From the IMG/VR virus record IMGVR_UViG_3300037493_003260, positions 20,089 to 84,088 of that record: DNA of 64,000 bases; one strand, written 5' to 3'. This stretch comes from a virus. This document shows positions 4,240 through 58,003 of this stretch, in pieces. The position numbers were made by a program, and so were the translations under genes. Under the pieces are notes generated by a model. It saw nothing but the letters and a program-made list of their open reading frames with translations, made no database searches and had not been told where the DNA came from. Positions within the stretch are counted from its first letter, which is position 1. Each line of letters begins with the position of its first letter.

Positions 4240-6426
4240 TTAGGCTGCGATATTGATAATCCTGCCTTGGAACGCTTCGCAGGTCATTTGAAGTACCGAG
4301 AATTCGGCAATCAAAGTCCTGTAAGCAGACTGAAGCAACGCAAGGTCGATAGCTGACAACGGCATGAGGTCAACCATCTGCACTGCGTTACCGTCTTCCA
4401 ACACTGTTTTGTCGTCGATGACGAGGGCAAAAGAATCACCATGAACGTCTTCCACAATATAGCGAGAGCCGATAATATCGACCAAGCCAAACGGGGAAAG
4501 CCATTTGGTAATACTGATACCAGCGGGAATATCCGCCATCGTACCAGCTCCTGCCTGGAACAGCTTGTAATAGCTGGACATCACCAGTTCGGAAATCTTC
4601 TGCAACTCACGATAACCAACAACAACAGCTTGAGGCTTCCCACCCTTGTTCACGATTTTCTTGCAAACTGCAGTTAAATCGGAAAGAGCTAAGGGCTGAT
4701 TAACGCCGCCAACTTTGCAGTCTTGAACGTTCGTCACAATCTGTTTGTTAAGACCATCGAACTGAAGCGGAGAGACCGAAGAATCGCCGTTGATAATGGC
4801 CCATTCTTCAATCAACGCTACGTTCAACATCTTGGTCTTAATTTGGTGCTTCTTAATATCCGTGTACGTCCCGCCAGCCATTTGTTCAAAGAACGAAACG
4901 GTAGCAAGGTCGCCCACACTGACATAAGGAGCCGATTTGTAAACGTAAGACGGCTGAGTAGCAGTCGGAAGCCCACCTTTGGCAAAAAAAGCATCCTCAG
5001 GGGCAGTTCCACCAAGGAACAGATGACCAGCAGACTGTGCGCCTGCGGAAATGGTCGGAATTAGCTGGTACCAAGCATGCACTAATGTTACGCAATCTTT
5101 CGATTGGGATTGCTATTTCTAGCAACCTCTCATAGTTACCTATGAGGTCGGACTATATCATCACTATACTAGTGTTCGGCGTGTAGTCTCTACGGATTCT
5201 ACTAGGTATTCTTAGTAGCCTTTCCTCGGTATTGTCCTTTGCAGGAGGTTCACCGATATAGCCAAATTTTACAAGGCCCATTGTGTTAAGCCTTGCCGTT
5301 CCCTTGAATCCGATTGAGTCGGTTTCGGAGCGGAGTGTCCGTTGGTGCCATAATCGCCCAAATAAGATTTCTCTTATGGGATTGTTACACTGTAAATTAG
5401 CCAGCGGTTAGGGCATTTCTGCCTAACTCTGCATGTCACCATGCAGTTCGGACTATATCTTCAATTTAAGATTCGTCATGCACTAGGTTTGCGAATGTTG
5501 TTAATTTGATTACTATATCCGCTAAGCCTTCTTAAATGTGTGGCGTTGAGTCTCTGAGGGAGTAAGTTGATACATTCATCTAAACGGTCTGATTTTCGTT
5601 TGATTGAAAATCGACACCCAGCTCTAATGAAAGAAGCTACGTTGAACCTGTAGTGGACAACTGGCTTAATACTACCTGCAAAGCCACCCTTACAGATTAA
5701 CGGTTTGGGCCAAACTGAAACTCCAAGGGAAGTTAAAAGCTTGTTGTATTGAGCAAGTAAATCTGTGTCTGTTGAACAATAGCCTATTTGATGTCTATAG
5801 GTATCAAAGTGCTTCTGTTTAGACTTGCTAATATAACCGTCTCCATCTATAAAGCCAGTGATTAACTTATGCTTTACAATTGGAAGTGCTTCCCAGGTTT
5901 CGTCTGGTAAAGATGACCCATTTTTCGTTGCCAGCAGTACCCATCGGCAGAGTTCGTCACACCGTACAAAAACGTTGTAAAGGAGCTTTCTAGTGCCCCG
6001 TTGCTGTTCAGAAATAGTAACCTTTCTGCCCAGTAATTTTTGTAAAGTAATTGCGACGGACTCAGCAAAGTCTTTATCGGTAACAGATAAACAAAATCTA
6101 TAACAGTTATCTTGTGTAAGATTAATGCATCCATCACTGAAATAAACACCTATGAGATATGCTGTGTTTGAGTCAAGTTTAAATTGTATCATTTTACCTT
6201 TCCTGCTGATTGTCTTCTATACTCTATTATACCATATTTTTACACTTTGGTAATGGTATATTTATCAGAAGATGTTCCAGCAAATAGCCACATTATGAGA
6301 CAGCGATTAACCTATCTCAGCTTGGAGGTCCTCACGAACCAACATCAAGCCGTCAACTGGAGTGGAACTAATAGCCTTCTGAATATCTTGAAGTGCTTGT
6401 TCTACGAGTTGAGCATTGTATGACAT
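4240..6426 (-). CDS. Major capsid protein (Twort/SPO1-like), three exons: 6314-6426, 5289-5358, 4240-5079; 340 aa spliced
   Basis: RBS aaggag upstream of ATG 6426. Joined frame MSYNAQ...VREDLQAEM-AIMAPTDTPLRNRLNRIQGNGKA-HAWYQL...; EEWAIINGD and FDGLNK motifs; follows protease/scaffold. Confidence 0.9.
5080..5288 (-). mobile_element. Group I intron 2 in capsid gene (209 nt, ORF-less)
   Basis: 5' exon CAAGGCU pairs with IGS GGCCUUG (terminal U.G); intron ends in G; core elements AGAGACUAC and GAUAUAGUC. Confidence 0.9.
5359..6313 (-). mobile_element. Group I intron 1 in capsid gene (955 nt) carrying a LAGLIDADG endonuclease
   Basis: P1 UGAGAU/GUCUCA; P10 UAAUCGCU/GGCGAUUA; terminal G; core elements UGCUGGAA, AAUCAGCAG, AGAGACUCAAC, AAGAUAUAGUC. 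Confidence 0.9.
5476..6192 (-). CDS. Intron-encoded double-motif LAGLIDADG homing endonuclease
   Basis: YLIGVYFSDG and LITGFIDGDG motifs; TGGTATAAT just upstream (6226-6234). Confidence 0.9.
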   Translation of the reverse strand: MIQFKLDSNTAYLIGVYFSDGCINLTQDNCYRFCLSVTDKDFAESVAITLQKLLGRKVTISEQQRGTRKLLYNVFVRCDELCRWVLLATKNGSSLPDETWEALPIVKHKLITGFIDGDGYISKSKQKHFDTYRHQIGYCSTDTDLLAQYNKLLTSLGVSVWPKPLICKGGFAGSIKPVVHYRFNVASFIRAGCRFSIKRKSDRLDECINLLPQRLNATHLRRLSGYSNQINNIRKPSA

Positions 6427-10174: not shown

Positions 10175-11752
<1,578 letters not shown>

Positions 11753-23665: not shown

Positions 23666-24193
23666 CTATTGAAATTTATTGTATTTTTGATGATTTAAAA
23701 TTGCAGGAATAATTTGCAAATTCCATGGAACATGCAAACCGCAAACAAGGCTATTTTTAAGCGGGACGATATGGTCCACGTGATGCAAAATTCCTGTACT
23801 TTTAGTCATTTCTTTACAACGAAGGTAAACAGCTTTTAATTCGTCACTGTTAACCCAGAAAGGTTTGGCGTGCCGTTTGGCAGCTCGGCGACTTGCATGA
23901 TGAGCATTCATAATGCCCAAGTTAGCTTTTCGCCAAGCTTTATTATAGGCTAAAACTTTGCCTTTATTGGCCAAATAGTGCTTGTGCACTTTTGCACGAC
24001 CTTGTTCTGGATGTGTTTTAGAATAATGAGAAACAACTAACTTGTAATGCTCAGAATTTTTAGACTGCCAGGGTCGTACATATTTAGAACTGTGACAGCT
24101 TTTGCAATGCGAATAAAGTCCGTCTTTTGCTCTACTGTCTTTATAAAAGTCGAGTTTGCTGAAGAAACTCTTGCAAGTTGCACACTGCTTCAT
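23666..24193 (-). CDS. Free-standing HNH homing endonuclease
   Basis: HVDHIVPL...VCGLHVPWNLQII....N..K.N. Confidence 0.88.
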   Translation of the reverse strand: MKQCATCKSFFSKLDFYKDSRAKDGLYSHCKSCHSSKYVRPWQSKNSEHYKLVVSHYSKTHPEQGRAKVHKHYLANKGKVLAYNKAWRKANLGIMNAHHASRRAAKRHAKPFWVNSDELKAVYLRCKEMTKSTGILHHVDHIVPLKNSLVCGLHVPWNLQIIPAILNHQKYNKFQ

Positions 24194-26877
24194 ACTTTTT
24201 TACCATAGAATGTTAAGTGGCTTTTTTCATCATCATCAGGCCTACGAAAGCCGTTGCTGTTTGCTAACCGTGTGGTTCCTGCAACCCCTGCGCTAAACTG
24301 TGCTTTGGCATTTTTGATGCACAAATTGACAACAGCGGCAACTGCATCTGCAAGGTCCTTGCTTCCTTCTTTGCGACCTTCTTCAAGTGACCTTCGATAA
24401 GACATCTCTGGATGGTCCACTTTGCCGTTTGGTTTTCGGATGAGTTCTTCGCACTCGCGAATGAAAACTGGGTGGTGATAAATGTCAAGCAAACCTTTGT
24501 AGATTTGTTCTTTCAAGGTGTCGTAGGCTTCGGTACTTCTGTCAACTGATTGTACCTCGGCAGGGATACCTTGCTTAATTAAAAGCTGCACGCTGTCAAC
24601 AGAGTTGTGAACAAAGATACCAGCAGACAAAGCAAAATTATGTGTGGCTGGAACTTCGATGTCGTATACGTCTTCATACCCAGCAAACTCAACAGAGACA
24701 ACTTTATGGTTGTTGGCACCGCACTTAGTTTTGCTAATTTTATCCTTGGTTTCTTGGCTTCGTTTTTTGCCCGTCCAATAACCAGGATTGCCCTTGTGAG
24801 CATCAGACATCTTCTTGGCATACACGGGGTCTTGCCAAAGTTTTTTAATGCTAGCACTAATCTTTTTTGCATTGGCAGCATCGGGCGGCTTTAACAGTGC
24901 TGGGAGATTAAACTTTTTGTTTCTCTCAGCCATCAACTGTGCTTGCCGTTTGCGTTCACCAGGAATGGCCCAACGTTTTTCACTAAGGGCTTTGTGTAGT
25001 GCTACGTGTTTCTTTACGTGAATATAGACCAAGTTTTCTGGGCTATTGTTTAAAGGGTTAAAATCTTTATGATGAACAACAAAATCTTTTGGCTTAGGAC
25101 CATAGCAGGTAGCAGCAACTACGTTATGCGTAAAATCCCAGGTTTTAGTCTCAGCATTATAAATCTGTTCATACTGTCGGACAGAGCCATCCTTACGCTT
25201 GTAAGGCTTCACGTATTTTGTATACAAAGGCATTAAACTGTCACCAGGCTGTAAAAACTGCACCTGTCTGTAGGTGCCATCACGCATGAGTATCGGGTGG
25301 TCTGGAGTAAATTCAACAGTCTCGCCGCTATCCAAAGTTACACGGTATACGGGAACTTTGGTACCAGTTTTTCTTACAGGCTTACAAAGTGCTGGAACAA
25401 TGCATCCAGCCTTTAAATCGTAAGAATATATCCACGTTTCCTTGGTAAGTTCGTCTATTCGTAAGTCGTTACCATTCAACAACTTAACCTTGTTGCTTCC
25501 TAAAGTACATTGCCAGCCATCATACGTAACCATTTTAATATTAAAGCCACTTTTATAAAGACCTTGTATAAACTGACGAAATTCATCAAAAATAATCTCT
25601 TGTCCAGGACGTGCTCGGACCTGCATCATAAAATCAATGACTGCAGCAGGCTGCTTCTGTGTACTAATATTTGCAGTTGAAAGTCCCTCAGCTTTAGTCA
25701 ATTCTTTTATGTAGTCGTCGCTGAGATTGATACTCTTATTACGAGTAAAGTGCCCCATGGCAATGCCCGAATAGTCACCAGATTCTTTGCCTTTGGCCAA
25801 GTCAATGTGTATAAAATAAGGCTGATTCTTAATCGGTCTAAAGAAATCCTTGAATTTCAATTTTAAAATGTCGTTTGTCCAAATGGCATCTCCTTCAACA
25901 GGAGACACACGATTGGGGTTTATGATGTCCTTGATGCGAGATTTGTATTTAAAATAGCCCTCAGCGGCTGTTGAACCCTCACACTCGTAGATACGCTTTG
26001 CGTCTTCAGGACTCTTTAAATAGTCATCTGCGAAGTCAGCCTTGGTACGTTTAACATTCCAAACCCACGTTGGGGCTTTCACGCGAAAGGTCTTTGCTTC
26101 CTTCTCTGCCTGCTGATAACGAATCATCATAAAATCGTTGTCGTCACGTTTGTATGATATCAACATCGTTTTACGATTAGAACCAAAGCGCGTTTTTTGA
26201 GTGGAGACAAGGGCTGTGTAGAGCTTGTCGGCCTTGCCTGGGTCAAAACCCCCCACTTCGTCGAAGATGGCCAGAAGAATATTTAAGCCTTCGCCAGTGT
26301 ACTCTTCGCTATCCAGTGAATAAGCCGTGATAGCCTTCGGAAATTTGATTTCACGCGTTTGAATGTCTGCTTTAAGGTCAAGACCGTGTTCCTCAAACCA
26401 GTTCTTTTTGGTTTTTGGATTTCTGCAAACGCGAATCATAGCAATAAGATTTTTAAAGAACACGTCTTTGGCAAGTCGTGCGTTTAGAGAAACGTTAGCT
26501 AAGTCGATTGCGGACTCAGGGGCATCCTCGGAGTTGTTATTGATGCCTAGCATTTTCTGCGGATTTCTCATGCACAGCAATTTATACACACAGTAAAGAA
26601 AGACCTTACAAATCGTTCGGTCCTTCCCACCCCCCTTGCCCACCAATGCAATACCCTCGTCATATGTGGCATCCCATATCAGTGGGTCAGTGCCAAGCAT
26701 GGCCTCCACGAATTTCTGCTGCTCTGGATAACAAGGCTCGTGCAAAAACTTTTCAAAGAAGACCGAAGGTGAAACTGGAATCTCTTCCCAAGTGTCATCA
26801 GTGCGGCGCAATGATTTGCTAGCAGCTGACGCTGCATTTTTTACCAGTTCAAAATCACTATTGTCCTGGAGTGACAT
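24190..26877 (-). CDS. terL: Terminase large subunit with intein
   Basis: GKGGGKD Walker A, IFDE Walker B, HIDLA nuclease motif, TYDGWQ|S, GSKDLADA. Confidence 0.9.
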   Translation of the reverse strand: MSLQDNSDFELVKNAASAASKSLRRTDDTWEEIPVSPSVFFEKFLHEPCYPEQQKFVEAMLGTDPLIWDATYDEGIALVGKGGGKDRTICKVFLYCVYKLLCMRNPQKMLGINNNSEDAPESAIDLANVSLNARLAKDVFFKNLIAMIRVCRNPKTKKNWFEEHGLDLKADIQTREIKFPKAITAYSLDSEEYTGEGLNILLAIFDEVGGFDPGKADKLYTALVSTQKTRFGSNRKTMLISYKRDDNDFMMIRYQQAEKEAKTFRVKAPTWVWNVKRTKADFADDYLKSPEDAKRIYECEGSTAAEGYFKYKSRIKDIINPNRVSPVEGDAIWTNDILKLKFKDFFRPIKNQPYFIHIDLAKGKESGDYSGIAMGHFTRNKSINLSDDYIKELTKAEGLSTANISTQKQPAAVIDFMMQVRARPGQEIIFDEFRQFIQGLYKSGFNIKMVTYDGWQCTLGSNKVKLLNGNDLRIDELTKETWIYSYDLKAGCIVPALCKPVRKTGTKVPVYRVTLDSGETVEFTPDHPILMRDGTYRQVQFLQPGDSLMPLYTKYVKPYKRKDGSVRQYEQIYNAETKTWDFTHNVVAATCYGPKPKDFVVHHKDFNPLNNSPENLVYIHVKKHVALHKALSEKRWAIPGERKRQAQLMAERNKKFNLPALLKPPDAANAKKISASIKKLWQDPVYAKKMSDAHKGNPGYWTGKKRSQETKDKISKTKCGANNHKVVSVEFAGYEDVYDIEVPATHNFALSAGIFVHNSVDSVQLLIKQGIPAEVQSVDRSTEAYDTLKEQIYKGLLDIYHHPVFIRECEELIRKPNGKVDHPEMSYRRSLEEGRKEGSKDLADAVAAVVNLCIKNAKAQFSAGVAGTTRLANSNGFRRPDDDEKSHLTFYGKKV
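24604..25509 (-). mobile_element. Intein (302 aa) with HNH endonuclease and NUMOD3-like motifs in terminase
   Basis: Starts CTLGSN; FTPDHP; VVHHKDFNPLNNSPENL; VYDIEV..THNF...FVHN followed by Ser. Confidence 0.92.
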
Positions 26878-43015: not shown

Positions 43016-43046
43016 AAGTCTCCTTTGTTAATGTGCTATTAATAAT

Positions 43047-43075
43047 ATTATACCACAAAACGGCGTGTATGACAA
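43047..43075 (-). promoter_or_regulatory. Sigma70-type promoter
   Basis: TTGTCA-17 bp-TATAAT with TG extension. Confidence 0.75.
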
Positions 43076-44636: not shown

Positions 44637-45643
44637 CTTTTCTCGTGGCCTCACATTTGCAGCACTCTTTAATCCAGACAGCCCCGCCCAGTTTACCAAA
44701 ATGCACCAGGTTGGCAAGGTAGAGTTTCTCTACCCGCACAGGATGAAAGCAGTGCTTACAGTTCTTTTTAGATTTGGTAGTCATTATTGAGGCCGTGATT
44801 CTTTGTCAGGGTCTTCAGTGACTTCTTTGCGGGCTTCTTTAATCTTCCGCATATCATTGGCTGCGCTGCGCCGTATCTCGTTATAGAGGGCAGCATCCAC
44901 GTCGTCTAGACTGTCGCCTTCCTCTACTTCGGCTTCAGCAGAATTATCCAACTTGATTGAGTTAAAATTGCCAAGATTGATGGTGCGGGAAATAGCCTTA
45001 GTCCTCTTTGTTATTTTCATGGGTACCCTCCTGGTATTTTTTGACTAGTTGCACAACGACACTTGCCAGCCACTGTACGGAGTCAGTGAGACTTCCAAAC
45101 AGGTAGGTTTTGAATTCGTTCTCGACAATAATGAGAGTTAACAGGGCAGTGGTCCAAAACCCTGTCTCGGTGTAGACTCCATAGAGCAGGCCCCCGAACA
45201 GCAGGTAGCGGATGCTCTTCCCTACAATAATATTGGTCTTCCGTTGCTTCTCTGGGTTCATTTTTTCTTCCCTTTCTTGATATTATAGTTGGATGCTTCC
45301 TCCAGCATGGCAATTAATGTATCGGCCACGGGGGCACCCATCTTGGCAATTGCATCTATTTTCTTTGCGTATGCCCTAGCAGAAATGGTTTTACGGTGTG
45401 TCATTTTTTTGTTTTCTTTTCTTCTGCTGGCTCGTACAGCACCGTGGACTTTGCTTTTGTGCAGCCGCAGTGCGGGCAGACATAATAGTCCCCGCTGGTA
45501 AACGTGGGGTATGTACACACAGTGCCCTTGTCAAACACCCTGGTGCTTTTTGCAAAGCAATTATCGCATGTCATATTCATCGTGTATGTTTCCATGTAAA
45601 AGCCTTTCCTTTAAGTAACGTTATAGATTACCACCATGATAAG

Positions 45644-45673
45644 ATTATACCACAGAACGACCCCTGCTGTCAA
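45644..45673 (-). promoter_or_regulatory. Sigma70-type promoter
   Basis: TTGACA-18 bp-TATAAT with TG extension. Confidence 0.78.
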
Positions 45674-46847: not shown

Positions 46848-47284
46848 CGTCTGACTCCAGGGAACTTAGATTTATGCCTAGGCCATCATGGAATATGCCA
46901 GTATATTTTTTCACAAATTCCTCGGCTGACATATTGGACGGGCGTTCTTTGACCATAAAAATATCTACTATCAAATGGACGAGCAGGGTGTCAAAGATAC
47001 CTCGATAGTTGGGGTTCTTTTCCAGCAGAACGGCCAGGTGTCTCTGGACAGTTTGCTTGGCGGAATCCCAATCGGATATTGACATGCCTCCGTAGTCATC
47101 AGGCATTATTTCTTCCTCTCAGGAAAGAAGTAACACAGGACCAGTATCACTATTGCAATTGGACCACAGGCCGCCAAACAGGAATAATATGCCGTTATAG
47201 CAGTCTTTAGGTAATCCAAAGCTATCAAAACCATTGAATCTGTGCAGTAATCCATGTTTTTCACTCCTTTAGCAGTAAATTATA

Positions 47285-47562
47285 GGCGGTCTGGACTAAT
47301 GATTTCACCAGTACCCTCTTTAAGCACGGGATTATAGTGCACCATCAGTAACGGCTGGTCAGCCACTCGCCACCCACCGATTTCTCTGATGCCTGATACA
47401 GGCCGTTCAGGTACTTTCGCCTAAGCCTTGTCCGCTGTACCGTTACCATAAAAAGGACCTGACTACTATGGCATCTGTTCGTCAGGTATCAGGGGGTATT
47501 CTCACACTGCTGTAGCGCAGTGAATATTGATGCCACCCACAAGGCAATCACTTAACTCCGCT
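47285..47562 (-). ncRNA. Putative structured non-coding RNA of unrecognised family
   Basis: ORF-free gap with many complementary segments forming nested stems and two pseudoknots (see findings); strand assumed from neighbours. Confidence 0.6.
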
Positions 47563-47579
47563 ATTTCCCGAAATGTGGT

Positions 47580-49156
47580 TTAAAGTGATTTCCGTTTACG
47601 ACTCTTGCGTTCTTGTTCAGCTCGGTCAGCGTCAGCCGCCCGCCAGCTGCCTATCAGGACCACGAATGCCAGCACAAAAAACACTACTGCAAGCAATAGT
47701 GCCTGTGGGTCCACTTTATACGAATAAGCAAACAGTCCACATAGTCCAAGGCAGCCTACGTATGTGATGAATCTGACTATGGTCGAGATTGTGTGTTGCA
47801 TTCTGGGTCTCCTATGATAGTCGGTGGGACATCAGGCGGTGGATTGCCCGTTCCCTTGTTAATGTCTTGTGGTTTGATAGGGCCGACATAGCCATATCCA
47901 GGACCAGAATCAGGGATGCCAAAATCCCAAAGTGTTCCAGACCCACCACAAGTACGGCATTTCTCAGGCTCTAACGAACCACTGAAAGCCCCAAACGTGT
48001 AAAATCCTGCAGGGACGTGGCCCCTGCCTAAACAAACTGGACACAAATGCGGTTTAGCCACAGTATGGTTCTCCTTCGTCTTCTTTATTTAGTGAATAGA
48101 ATGTAATCTCGACCAGAAACTTTGCACCACAATCAGGACACGTGACTATGACACCCGTGTCGTCACTGACTGGGGCTAAAATAAACTCGTCCATGTTACA
48201 TTCGCCATGCGTGTTAAAACATTTTGGACAGTAGACCTGTATCATTTTTTCACCTTTGTGTACTTCTCGCATGTGGTTACCAGTGAAAAATAAAGTTCAA
48301 ATGGTAATGTAAAATACGCTAGGTCAAGAACCTTGTTAATTTTTGAATACGAGGTTGCTTTCGTTGCTCGTTTAACTAGAAACTTGTTTGCCATGTTTGT
48401 CTACCCTTCCTAGTCCGTTACAGAACGGACAGTTTTCAGTGCTGCGACTTTTCCAAGTCGTATTCAATCCCGCTTTGTCGGGGTGCAGATGAATCTGTGT
48501 CACCTTGCCAGTGCCACTGCAGTTCTTGCAGTCTATGCCAAATGCAAGGATATAATTCCTGTCCCAATTTGCTTGGTTATACGGGCGGCGTTTGTCACCC
48601 TTGCCACCGTCACTCATCTTTGGGTTTCTCCATGGGTTTTTTGCAGTGCGGGCAAATCTTCCTATGAATCGGCATGTGGTCGTCGATTATTTTTTTAATG
48701 CTCTCATCGTCCCTCAGAATAAGCCAGCCAGCACAGTAATCCTCTGAATGTTCTTCCCAGATAGTGCATGCCTCTTCCACAGTAATGTTGTAGCCTATTT
48801 CTTTGGCCAAGTCTTTAATGCGTACGCAATCCATGAAATAGTTTTCAAGATGGTCAAACATTAGTGTCACCCCTTCTTTTTCGGAATTTCATATCGTTCT
48901 TCCAGAACGCTCCCGTTTCATTGTGCCGCCTATTTATTTCTGCTAAATGAAACTTGTAAACAGTCTCAATGGTATCCAGGTCAGTCGGAGAATCATTGCA
49001 TTTAATACAATGAAAAGTTGTATCGTACTCGCATCTATGCTGTGCCCCCACTGGCATAAGCTCTTTTTCAAATTCCATGCCGTCCTCCGCATTGGGACAT
49101 TTGCAATTTAATTTGGTCATAGCTAACAGGGGTATAATCCCAGCTGTCAACTCCAA
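47580..49156 (-). CDS. Run of small accessory genes, many with CxxC motifs (47580-47801 TM; 47777-48061; 48054-48272; 48372-48617; 48610-48870; 48854-49156)
   Basis: Overlapping start/stop coupling; CxxCxGxG DnaJ-like zinc motifs. Confidence 0.55.
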
Positions 49157-52439: not shown

Positions 52440-53265
52440 TAGTCTTCCTCTCCTGTGTAGATAACCTTGCATTGTATTTTTTCAACTAGTACTCGTCCGT
52501 CACTACTAATCTCTGGAGTTTCCCACCACGGTGCCATAGGCAGCTGATGTGCATGGTAATAAATTGGCCCACACGACTCATCAGCTATCCAGAAGGACTC
52601 ACATTTCGGGCAAATAATTACTTTTCTCACTCTGTTTAAGTCCTTTCCGTATAAGGTACATGTTAAGCATTCTTGTCCTCGATTTCTTCAATGAGGCATT
52701 TAATCTTTTCCACCTCAGCATCAGTTTCTGGTAATAGCCTCTCGGTAGCAACTTCCTCAGGGCCGTCCACGAATCGTTTCCGTGTAGGAATGTGCTGACA
52801 CCATGCATCATACTGATTAGGTCTTAGCGGATAAATCTTTCCACACTTAGGGCAATAAGCTACCCGCTGTTTAGGCATTTTTTAGGTATTCTGGAAAATC
52901 GGCACAGCACAGAATTTCTTTTCGTATGCAGGGCCATTTTCTTACAGCGTTTTTATAGGCCAATCTGTAAATGAATTTTTGGTATTTAAAAACAAGCATA
53001 TGAAACGGCCTAAAAATAGGAAATACCCAAAACCCATAGGGTTTATGCACCAGGCAATACCCAGGAAAAATCAAATCGTGCAAAGATTGACAATTTATAG
53101 AACAGTATACACGAACTGTTCCAAACTTTTCTTTGTACTGCCATACCTGAATTCGGCCCCACTTACGGCACAAATTTCCAATGTAAGACGCAGCATCGTC
53201 TAAGTCATCCCAAGCGTCAAAATCTTCATCCCCGTAACTATGCACTGTAACCTCCATTTAATTAG

Positions 53266-53295
53266 ATTATACCACAAAAACACTGTTATTGTCAA
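53266..53295 (-). promoter_or_regulatory. Sigma70-type promoter
   Basis: TTGACA-18 bp-TATAAT with TG extension. Confidence 0.78.
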
Positions 53296-55447: not shown

Positions 55448-58003
55448 TCATTTTGCCTCCCCATTTAGAAAATAATCTTTTGGCAGTTTTTCCATGGCAC
55501 CCAGTTTCTGTCCAACTGAAACATCTGCAGTAAGTAGAACCACGATTGGTCCAGGTCGTTCTGTCATCTTTGCGTGTACCATATGGATTACCTCGTCAAA
55601 TTCTTCGTCTTTTACTTCAAGAATCAAAGAGTCGTGGATGGTCATAATCAGGCGAGATTGTAAGCCACGCTTTAAAAGTTCCGATTTGACTTTAATGCTG
55701 GCCACTGACAAAATGTCGTGCGCCCCACCTTGAATGGGGGAATTCACAGCCTGACGGCGTGCCTCTGCCATCAGCACTTCCACGCCTGACCGAAACCCAC
55801 TCGCCAGCCTGCGCCTGCGCCCAGTCCAGCCAATTACTTCTCCTGTGGTTTCGGCACGTTTCTCTGTAGTTTTCATCCATGCCTTCATTACAGGGTAACG
55901 GGCGTAGATTGCATTAAAAGTTGCCTTTACCTGTTCAACGCTTAGCCCTGTATCTTTTGCAAGATTTTCCTCGCCCTTGCCGTAAATAACACTATAAACG
56001 ATTGTTTTTGCTTTTTCACGAAGTTCAAGAGTAACCTGCTCTGGAGTCATTTGGAACGCAATAGACGCAATCTTTCTATGAATATCCATCTTGACATCGT
56101 TTAAGTCAGCCAGCATGGTCGGGTCTTTGCTCTCGTTTGCTAATAGGCGGAATTCAATTTGTCCCAAGTCTGCCTCTATTAGTTTGAATCCTGGGGGCGC
56201 AATAATCCCCATGCGTAATTCCATGGCCATCCCAGGCTCTCTCTTTGGAATATTTTGTAAATTTGGATTGGAACTTGCAAGTCGTCCTGTAACTGTTGTG
56301 TGTTGCATATAGCTGGTATGCAACCGACCGTCTCCTCTGGCCAAATCAGGCATCGGTTTCACGTAAGTCGAATAAAACTTGCTTAACTTTCTATGCCGAA
56401 GTAGCAACTTTGGCAACGGATGTTCATAGGCCAGCCGTTCTAGGACCTCTTTGTCAGTTGATGGCTTGCTGGCGGCATTCGTTTTACGGCCCTTTGTTTT
56501 GGTCTGTTTGTACACGGGTAGCTTAAGCACGTCATAAAACAGAACCCGCATTTGGTCAGATGAATTAAAATTGACTGGCTTTCCCTGTTTCCGTTCTAGC
56601 CACTTCACATCTGGGTAACTGTACAGCTCGGCCTCCGTCTTTTTGATTTCCTCTTCGTATTTCAGGGCCAGCTTCTGGTAGTATTCTTTGTCTATCAAGA
56701 CCCCAGACATTTCCATGTCGGCCAGCACCACCGACAAGGGCAACATAATTTTTTGAAGTAACGGCAACAATCCCAGTTGCTTGACACGGGGTTGAAGCAC
56801 ACAGTACACACGCAGGGTTGCGTCCACGTCTTTGCAGGCGTACCGACAGAGTGTTTCTTGGGGTATCTTAATCATTGTGAACTGGTCGAACTTGGAGTAT
56901 TCAATCCCTAAGACTGAACACAGTTCTACAGAATAATCGCCCATGTCTGTAAACTTAAGAGCCAGATTCCCCAAGTCGTGCTGGCCTTTGGCGTTTTCAT
57001 CCAGCAGGTAATGCCCCAGCATGGTATCGAAAATAATACCCTTTGTTTTTATCCCGTAATATTTCAGGAATTGGTAATCGTATTTTATGTTCTGGCCAAT
57101 CTTTCGCTTATCAGGGTCTTCCAAAAATGTTTTCAGTCTAGACCAGATGTATTTCTCGTCCTCGTCGGACCAGAACTTTTCAGTCGGCTCTGTGAATTCG
57201 CTACCCGTATTATAAAAGGAAATGACAGACCCTGTGCCCACCTTTGTTGCAAACTGCACTGTAAGAATTTTACCTGTTAGAAAATCCCCAAACGTTTCTG
57301 TGTCCAGCGAGGCAACTTGGCTAGCGTTCAGTTCCACCATGAAGGCTTCAAATTGGTCCAGCGTCTTGATGTATTTGTATGATGTAGCCAGCTGGCCTGT
57401 GCTTCCTGTCTCACTGATTTTTTTGATGTAATCCAAGTCTCTCCTGAATTGCTCGGCTTCTTCTAGGCTTTCTGAATTGCGTATCAGAAAAGACGGATGC
57501 CAAGTTGGCACGCACCAGCATTTAAATTTGTCGCTCCACAACGGCTTGCCCCTGAATTTTGTGATGCCATCCAATCCAAGGACCTGTTTGAGTGCAACGG
57601 CCCCCATCAATCCAATGACGGTTGGCTTGACCAATCCAATTTCATAAGCCAGGTAGGGTTCGCACGCCCGCAGTTCCATCGGTTTGTGGACTTGGTTCAA
57701 TGGCGGTCGGCATTTCAAACTGTGGGTTACATACACGTTTTCCCGTTTAAGTCCAACACGGGTGAGATATTTGTCCAGTATGGCACCTGTATCACCCTGA
57801 AACGGAGCATCGGCCAAAATGTCTTGCTTCCCTGGAGATTCCCCGACTAGCAGAATCTTGGCGGTCAGATTTCCAGCACCCCATAAACACACAACTTCCT
57901 TTGTGTCAGCCTTGCTGGTTTTGCAAAGCTGGCATCTTCCGCAAGTCGGATTGCGTCCTGTGACGGCCTCGGTCATTGCCCGTTTCATGCTAATTCGTGC
58001 CAT
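55448..58003 (-). CDS. polA: Family A DNA polymerase with N-terminal family-4 uracil-DNA-glycosylase domain and 3'-5' exonuclease
   Basis: C..C.LC, GESPG, KCRPP, WHPS; LDTET, N.KYD, YA..D; TGRLASSNPNLQNIP, D..QIE.R, R..AK...Y...YG, IHD. Confidence 0.93.
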   Translation of the reverse strand: MARISMKRAMTEAVTGRNPTCGRCQLCKTSKADTKEVVCLWGAGNLTAKILLVGESPGKQDILADAPFQGDTGAILDKYLTRVGLKRENVYVTHSLKCRPPLNQVHKPMELRACEPYLAYEIGLVKPTVIGLMGAVALKQVLGLDGITKFRGKPLWSDKFKCWCVPTWHPSFLIRNSESLEEAEQFRRDLDYIKKISETGSTGQLATSYKYIKTLDQFEAFMVELNASQVASLDTETFGDFLTGKILTVQFATKVGTGSVISFYNTGSEFTEPTEKFWSDEDEKYIWSRLKTFLEDPDKRKIGQNIKYDYQFLKYYGIKTKGIIFDTMLGHYLLDENAKGQHDLGNLALKFTDMGDYSVELCSVLGIEYSKFDQFTMIKIPQETLCRYACKDVDATLRVYCVLQPRVKQLGLLPLLQKIMLPLSVVLADMEMSGVLIDKEYYQKLALKYEEEIKKTEAELYSYPDVKWLERKQGKPVNFNSSDQMRVLFYDVLKLPVYKQTKTKGRKTNAASKPSTDKEVLERLAYEHPLPKLLLRHRKLSKFYSTYVKPMPDLARGDGRLHTSYMQHTTVTGRLASSNPNLQNIPKREPGMAMELRMGIIAPPGFKLIEADLGQIEFRLLANESKDPTMLADLNDVKMDIHRKIASIAFQMTPEQVTLELREKAKTIVYSVIYGKGEENLAKDTGLSVEQVKATFNAIYARYPVMKAWMKTTEKRAETTGEVIGWTGRRRRLASGFRSGVEVLMAEARRQAVNSPIQGGAHDILSVASIKVKSELLKRGLQSRLIMTIHDSLILEVKDEEFDEVIHMVHAKMTERPGPIVVLLTADVSVGQKLGAMEKLPKDYFLNGEAK

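Follow-up and report, generated by a model that had tools for sequence, protein, structure and literature searches.

The locus studied here raises the question of what occupies an intergenic gap in a phage genome that encodes no protein, and whether the RNA read from it has a conserved structure. The window, i.e. the whole 64,000-nt stretch of DNA that we analysed, is part of an 84-kb IMG/VR virus record, which derives from a sediment metagenome and represents an uncultured phage. The genome encodes, among other phage proteins, a PolA fused to UDG, a primase, DnaB, RecA and a portal. The large ORFs of the window, including those flanking the gap, all lie on the minus strand. The limits of the gap (Table 1) assume that the next gene starts at the conserved ATG at 47255. 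The ORF lists hold no ORF of at least 45 aa in the gap on either strand, and stops are abundant in all three minus-strand frames, which bears out the absence of ORFs reported in the first-pass annotation. The gene that follows the gap, a small ORF beginning with MDYCTDS, encodes a membrane protein of 49–52 aa (49 aa in the window) with a hydrophobic C-terminal half. An 88-aa ORF and then a PD-(D/E)XK (Cas4-like) exonuclease gene are located 3′ of it, and several other neighbouring genes also encode small membrane proteins. Cultured phage DNA gave no match to 47100–47750 when 50,697 phage records were searched with blastn in distant mode.

The first-pass annotation had interpreted 278 nt of this gap as a single RNA containing two pseudoknots, a multi-way junction and a terminal helix, possibly a new class of ribozyme, decoy or RNP scaffold. 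Each of the complementary segments that it listed is found on the minus strand where it was placed, and several of the listed helices appear in the MFE structure. However, the complementarity itself is at the level of chance. With G-U pairs allowed and 300 dinucleotide shuffles as the control, the 278 nt contain 82 stems of at least 6 bp against 70.1 ± 9.2 in the shuffles (fraction of shuffles reaching the observed number, 0.10), 30 of at least 7 bp against 26.5 ± 5.7 (0.30) and nine of at least 8 bp against 10.1 ± 3.4 (0.67). Thus, complementarities of 7–8 bp between a loop and a distant segment are expected several times by chance, and those found by hand carry no weight without such controls. 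The folding energy leads to the same result, with an MFE of −88.3 kcal/mol against −84.45 ± 5.34 kcal/mol for the shuffles (z = −0.72; 48 of 200 at least as good).

The gap shows no match to a known RNA family either, as had been proposed. A search of the whole window at the gathering threshold against Rfam 15, whose families include RNase P, tmRNA, group I and II introns, self-cleaving ribozymes, riboswitches, HEARO and ROOL/GOLLD, finds only Intron_gpI at 5129–5330, elsewhere in the genome. At E values up to 10, the region 47000–47900 shows only unrelated sub-threshold matches to BtsR1 (E = 0.29) and RefA5 (E = 6.9), both outside the hairpin described below, and at E values up to 5 the related loci L009 and L007 show none at the homologous place. 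This novelty is relative to Rfam, and the element may be present in the motif tables of a large IMG/VR survey (PMC10690425). A tRNA or tmRNA is not indicated by ARAGORN, which reports zero genes in the window. A group I intron is not supported, since RF00028 finds the 5129–5330 element and none at the gap, and the flanking ORFs are separate genes, each with its own stop, Shine–Dalgarno sequence and start, rather than exons joined in frame.

To compare the gap with its relatives, we used the downstream exonuclease, for which the protein collection lists 19 proteins, itself and 18 relatives. Fifteen of them were aligned (A1); this alignment led to three loci in IMG/VR and nine in JGI metagenomes, and three close loci carry sequence upstream of the exonuclease gene. 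L005, whose exonuclease is 74% identical to that of the window, has a Zn-finger protein gene followed by a 57-aa homologue of the upstream ORF and directly by a gene for a 187-aa HNH endonuclease; there is no gap, no MDYCTDS homologue and no similarity to the gap. L009 has its own 300-nt gap, then an HNH gene and then the small ORF, and only two stretches of its gap match ours above shuffles. In L007, which has no HNH gene there, the contig starts about 24 nt before the conserved 3′ block and similarity begins about 24 nt from that start, with the sequence further upstream outside the contig. The distant loci L002, L011 and L012 have other genes and no such gap. A further variant is provided by a Logan contig (X3 record 4; 1230 nt, depth 4.94, possibly with errors), which matches the window over 47187–47447 only and then continues unlike it. 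Over 47283–47378 this contig has two substitutions only (47355 and 47371), over 47379–47418 it is poorly aligned (14 listed substitutions, 9 nt omitted), and over 47419–47447 it has at most one unlisted difference. The X2 contigs cover only parts outside the gap. Exact and degenerate DNA patterns of the gap gave nothing in IMG/VR and GTDB genomes except two 17-mer matches (L014 and L015), which show no further similarity and were judged to be chance. In IMG/VR, the exonuclease as a single query gave no match, and the small-ORF alignment gave 58 pattern matches and zero relatives.

Table 1. Features of the gap and its borders, in window positions; L005, L007, L009 and X3 are the related sequences introduced in the text.
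Feature	Position	Strand	Basis
ORF-free intergenic gap, ~320 nt	47256–47579	−	ORF lists, three-frame translation, conserved start downstream
Upstream membrane-protein ORF, 73 aa	47580–47801	−	ORF list; homologue in L005 present without the RNA unit
Window-specific 5′ spacer, orphan sequence	47448–47579	−	Unlike L009, L005 and X3; folded alone, MFE z = −0.62
Conserved irregular hairpin (domain 1)	47347–47447	−	Separate folds, MAFFT alignment, RNAalifold, SCI, covariance model
Hairpin H1, 9-bp closing helix	47447–47439 with 47355–47347	−	Folds and comparison
Hairpin H2	47437–47434 with 47363–47360	−	Folds and comparison
Hairpin GCU/RGC helix	47426–47424 with 47371–47369	−	Folds and comparison
Hairpin inner helix, 3 bp	47419–47417 with 47380–47378	−	RNAalifold
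Block B, nearly invariant	47283–47346	−	Alignments with L009 and L007; nhmmer; X3
Promoter-like GTGAAA-N18-TATAAT, just upstream of the Shine–Dalgarno sequence	47279–47308	−	Consensus scan, 10 of 12 matches
Small ORF MDYCTDS..., with Shine–Dalgarno AAAGGAG (47270–47264) and ATG 47255	47106–47270	−	Sequence; homologues in L007 and L009

The 5′ part of the gap, about 131 nt, has no counterpart in L009, L005 or X3, where for L009 and L005 this means no similarity beyond shuffles. Homology of this part to L009 351–446 was rejected, as it scores 14 against a shuffle mean of 14.1. A decayed HNH gene in the gap was rejected as well, tblastn with the HNH proteins of L005 and L009 giving a best E of 0.11. 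Most of the proposed helices have strands in this unshared part. Located here are both strands of the first pseudoknot, two hairpins (UAUUC-ACUGC and CUGAC/GUCAG) and, for the terminal and GUCC/GGAC helices, the 5′ strand. The central junction helix CCUGAUAC/GUAUCAGG has a window-specific 5′ strand, and its 3′ strand is largely missing in the relatives; six of its eight nucleotides are absent from L009 (a gap at columns 52–59 of alignment A4), and in the X3 contig three are deleted and one is substituted. This helix also competes with a window-specific apex hairpin, GCCUG-UAU-CAGGC. Folded as a consensus, the whole gaps of the window and L009 reach only −19.65 kcal/mol (327 columns), and the main helices are all missing from this fold; L005 lacks the whole region. 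GCGG and CCGC do occur near both ends of the L009 gap as well; however, chance alone would place a GCGG of 4 nt in a stretch of this kind. Thus, the 278-nt architecture is not the conserved unit. Although its segments exist and lack an Rfam match, the single large RNA is largely refuted and keeps next to no probability, and no part of the analysis speaks for a ribozyme, decoy or RNP scaffold. The proposed RNA would have been notable, as a large pseudoknotted molecule of a new class; it fails both the chance controls and the comparison with relatives.

What the relatives share is smaller and lies 3′ of the spacer. Local alignment of the 5′ 200 nt of the gap with L009 220–430 yields one significant stretch, near CGGACRAGGCUWAGGC, which is also in X3 (score 29; none of 300 shuffles above 24). 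We folded the surrounding sequence of the window (47448–47346, from just before GGUAACGGU to just after GCCGUUACU) and, separately, the corresponding stretches of L009 (256–350) and the X3 variant; the X3 variant was rebuilt from the difference table of the single contig. All three folds follow one plan, with a 9-bp closing helix, a 1-nt bulge, a 4–5-bp helix with four unpaired nucleotides on its 3′ side, short helices and an apex of variable length, which in the window holds the extra small hairpin mentioned above. The closing helix is GUAACGGU/GCCGUUAC, the pairing that had been taken for the second pseudoknot. The pairing itself is backed by comparison, and it is the only helix of the first-pass annotation of which this can be said; it closes a simple hairpin of about 100 nt and is not a pseudoknot.

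The alignment of the window and L009 domains (MAFFT, A4) is ungapped at both ends. The first 14 nt differ at ten positions, and the sequence is conserved from position 15 on. When our structure is placed on A4, 35 of 36 cells are paired and seven of 18 pairs have changed on both sides, compared with 20–56% paired cells and zero or one doubly changed pair in six slid controls. RNAalifold, run without a supplied structure, returns the same helices together with an inner 3-bp helix, giving 21 pairs, nine of them doubly changed, at −26.41 kcal/mol. The structure conservation index (SCI) of the window and L009 hairpins is 0.81. As further controls, 70 windows of 103 columns were taken from flanking coding DNA aligned with L009, L007 and L005. 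Their SCI averages 0.41, and one of the 70 reaches 0.8; their doubly changed pairs average 1.34 with a maximum of 5, although the controls are 69% identical against 46% for the domain and so leave less room for double changes, which limits this comparison and not the index. The two substitutions of X3, at 47355 and 47371, hit the G of the predicted pairs U10–G94 and U25–G78, and both turn a G-U into an A-U pair; L009 likewise has A in the second of these pairs.

The gene-sense strand folds better than the opposite strand, at −33.2 kcal/mol against −25.6 kcal/mol. The MFE z-scores of the domain are modest (−1.14 for the window and −1.76 for both the X3 variant and L009), and, when the whole 186-nt unit is folded, the window MFE pairs the 3′ strand of H1 differently from H1. 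A covariance model (R1) run on the window and 12 loci, the whole 84-kb record and the phage records G001 and G002 recovers only its two training sequences, those of the window and L009. The hairpin is thus single-copy in the genome and absent from these two more distant phage records; the block A 20-mer has no second copy in the window. Judged from two full sequences and one reconstructed variant, together with the partial L007 locus, the hairpin has been conserved through compensatory changes. The internal sequences CGGACRAGGCUWAGGC and GGUGGG are fixed, and the stems drift yet stay paired. The expectation of a structured phage RNA with covarying homologues therefore holds for a conserved element of about 100 nt in the 3′ part of the gap, on the gene-sense (minus) strand; it does not hold for the proposed size, junction, terminal helix and two pseudoknots, and the 278-nt architecture is not common to the relatives.

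The hairpin is directly followed by block B, which is 64 nt long and nearly invariant in the window, X3, L009 and L007 (nhmmer E = 9.7e-18 for L007). Its core at 47343–47313, GGUGCACUAUMAUCCCGUGCUUAAAGAGGGU, is followed by about 20 variable nucleotides and then by ACCGCCUA (47290–47283). X3 shows zero differences from the window over 47283–47354 and seven over the adjacent 47222–47262. The block has a weak consensus fold (−10.7 kcal/mol) with no helpful covariation. It contains two TATAAT-like hexamers, one of them enclosed by the inverted repeat GCAC-N9-GUGC. The GCAC/GUGC hairpin drawn there in the first-pass annotation is present, and its invariance gives no information on pairing, so comparison neither backs nor opposes it. 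The promoter-like site at 47279–47308, in which the block ends, is weak, because the region has four such sites against 2.5 ± 1.3 in shuffles, and its −10 hexamer varies among the relatives. Two further readings of the block were rejected: allowing up to three mismatches, the core has no second copy in the window, which does not suit a repeated phage promoter or regulatory motif, and a micro-ORF after AAAGAGGG does not keep its frame among the window, L007 and L009. Block B may work as RNA, as DNA or as both, i.e. as a leader and/or a promoter–operator.

These properties bear on the explanation that the gap holds no functional RNA structure and is a neutral spacer with DNA signals, its stems being coincidence or a DNA palindrome. 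The signal might be a promoter, a regulator site made of GCAC-N9-GTGC over a TATAAT-like hexamer, or the homing target or co-conversion tract of the HNH endonuclease seen in relatives. Block B agrees with such an explanation, since it is conserved as sequence without covariation, carries the two hexamers and the promoter-like site, and in L009 has the HNH gene right after it; the weak thermodynamic z-scores and a sample of two or three sequences also agree with it. However, with nine doubly compensated pairs and an SCI of 0.81 the hairpin is far above both the slid controls and the 70 coding windows. Pairing within a single gene-sense strand, and not within duplex DNA, accommodates the G-U pairs and the changes from G-U to A-U in X3. 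Moreover, the stems differ while the interior is conserved, the opposite of protein-bound terminal inverted repeats. We therefore consider DNA signals alone a rather unlikely account of the gap.

A single-stranded DNA hairpin acting at the DNA level, e.g. as a replication or recombination signal, would also fit a conserved hairpin that prefers one strand, and the neighbourhood encodes an exonuclease, RecA, a primase, DnaB and PolA. However, there are no iterons and no AT-rich unwinding stretch, the element is missing in L005 and in more distant relatives that keep the replication genes, and it is linked to a small accessory gene rather than to replication genes. This makes the explanation very improbable.

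The linkage to the downstream gene is regular. The hairpin and/or block B precede the MDYCTDS ORF in all four sequences that have either of them (the window, L007, L009 and X3, of which X3 covers the 5′ part of the ORF), and L005 lacks the hairpin, block B and the ORF together. The upstream neighbour of the unit differs among the window, L009 and X3. A constant downstream ORF next to a changing upstream neighbour shows that the unit belongs with the downstream gene; by this comparison of gene order and sequence, hairpin, block B and small gene have been inherited together. A strict leader role fails in L009, where the HNH gene, inserted right after block B, and a second structured stretch of about 95 nt stand between the hairpin and the small ORF.

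The HNH genes (Pfam PF01844; PHROGs HNH families) lie at 2917–3480 in L005 and at 520–867 in L009, at or beside the position of the gap, and are absent from this position in the window and L007, which makes it a presence/absence hot spot. In L009 a Shine–Dalgarno region is found on both sides of the HNH insert. The second structured stretch of L009 (351–446) is located between the hairpin and block B. In it, three small hairpins are closed by a helix of 7 bp, GACAGUG/CACUGUC; the MFE has z = −1.92, and nine of 200 shuffles fold equally well. L007 shares the 3′ part, and the window lacks the stretch. Free-standing homing endonuclease insertion sites occur in phage genomes, and the present locus resembles them in that HNH genes are found in L005 and L009 but not in the window or L007, and in that highly conserved sequence adjoins the insertion point. 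Insertion of this kind would account for the mosaicism and, perhaps, for what block B is; the compensatory changes of the hairpin would not follow from it.

Our preferred reading, held with middling confidence, is that the gap is a mosaic and that the hairpin most likely belongs to a polycistronic mRNA, on which it acts in cis. The gap would consist of a phage-specific spacer of 131 nt, the irregular hairpin and the invariant block. All genes are co-oriented and the nearest strong promoter-like motifs are kilobases away, so the hairpin most likely lies inside a polycistronic mRNA; a TGTGGTATAAT-like motif, repeated at about 53.27, 45.65 and 43.05 kb, likewise places the gap probably inside a longer transcript. 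Transcribed in this way, the hairpin would act in cis on the mRNA that carries it, either as an RNase III-type site of processing or stability or, bound by a protein, as a leader setting downstream translation, and the invariant block would serve as leader and/or promoter–operator DNA. If the promoter-like site at 47308–47279 is a real start, the hairpin would be outside the own mRNA of the small gene. The hairpin is a single rod with 21 consensus pairs, a 1-nt bulge and small internal loops, in agreement with a stem of the RNase III type. An intrinsic terminator is not indicated, as no terminator-like site was found in 47256–47579 on either strand and the 3′ strand of H1 is followed by CUGAUGG.

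The small ORF with its hydrophobic C-terminal half always accompanies the unit, which raises the possibility of a leader of the type I toxin–antitoxin kind, with the 49-aa hydrophobic protein as toxin and an antisense RNA from the plus strand, or of a trans-acting phage sRNA. In type I toxin–antitoxin mRNAs of the hok/sok kind, a long untranslated leader with structure precedes the gene for a very small hydrophobic peptide, and our locus is like them in having such a region before such a gene in a mobile genome. A plus-strand promoter-like site at 47160–47188, inside the ORF and pointing to its start, could supply the antisense RNA. However, this site has only nine of 12 matches, in a region that yields 2.5 ± 1.3 sites by chance; neither strand of the gap has a terminator-like site after it, and small membrane proteins are also encoded by several neighbouring genes. 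Unlike hok/sok-type leaders, the locus shows neither an antisense RNA gene nor 5′ and 3′ ends that pair by folding back. Against an sRNA stand the lack of an own promoter or terminator and the reading frames of X3, two of three of which are open over the 30 known upstream letters and stop inside the hairpin, so that an upstream ORF of X3 may enter the first bases of the hairpin. Both forms of this explanation appear decidedly improbable.

A related idea gives the hairpin and block B a more specific role, as a new class of sensing or protein-binding cis-regulatory RNA or as the leader of a phage-borne type I toxin-like peptide. Two observations bear on a riboswitch-type reading, the conserved internal sequences within drifting stems and the complementary segments UAGGC and GCCUA, invariant and without covariation. 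A sensing RNA would have its conserved internal loops held in place by the drifting stems, and UAGGC/GCCUA pairing with block B would form the alternative structure. If true, a clade of uncultured phages from sediment and groundwater would use it to switch expression of a small membrane protein; we regard it as unlikely, and the element would gain in interest only if its conserved internal loops bind a ligand or a phage protein. The two segments, UAGGC at 47424–47420 and GCCUA at 47287–47283, both on the minus strand, are complementary in the window and X3 and shortened to AGGC/GCCU in L009. They form a candidate alternative long-range pairing that is used in the MFE of the whole unit and that, being invariant, offers no covariation.

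Among known systems, the preferred cis-acting reading can be compared with the early polycistronic precursor of T7, about 7000 nt long; a review (PMC3867540) describes five RNase III processing signals in it, and internal loops that shape cleavage. The phage hairpin is like those of T7 in being irregular, with about 20 pairs, bulges and small internal loops, and in lying between co-oriented phage genes; its stems also appear free to drift while pairing, and a processing role is here a prediction. Unlike the T7 sites, the hairpin is single-copy and not one of a series, and it has strongly conserved internal sequences and a variable apex, which are not stated features of RNase III sites. The survey of IMG/VR by Fremin, Bhatt and Kyrpides 2023 (PMC10690425) gives 10,006 candidate structured RNAs. 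Its cis-regulatory candidates resemble our element in having covarying structure consistently upstream of one gene family in uncultured phages, and differ in that the downstream gene here encodes a 49-aa membrane protein and not GP20 or GP32. The hairpin is thus without an Rfam family and yet a familiar kind of feature, a conserved hairpin in an intercistronic or leader region of a phage. The element is small and narrowly distributed, with covariation from very few sequences; it is useful for annotation, since it marks, at a hot spot of homing endonucleases, a control region linked to the gene of a small membrane protein.

Elsewhere, the genome is rich in selfish elements, comprising an intron, an intein ORF and HNH genes. 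The group I intron at 5129–5330 (minus strand; RF00028, 65.9 bits, E = 1.7e-14) is located between the ORFs 4240–5082 and 5476–6192. An 895-aa ORF at 24190–26877 (minus strand) combines an intein splicing domain with HNH_3 and NUMOD3 motifs. The DNA polymerase A is encoded by an 851-aa ORF at 55448–58003 (minus strand) and carries the uracil-DNA glycosylase domain at its N-terminus. A motif of about 22 nt (family D14) occurs in three copies at 43039–43060, 45636–45657 and 53258–53279; it reads TTTTGTGGTATAAT... on the minus strand, is TGTGGTATAAT-like and resembles an extended −10 promoter repeated ahead of early-gene blocks. Lastly, long arrays of a 9-nt periodic repeat at 1–612, 1830–2945 and 11456–11512 code for collagen-like Gly-X-Y stretches in several structural genes.
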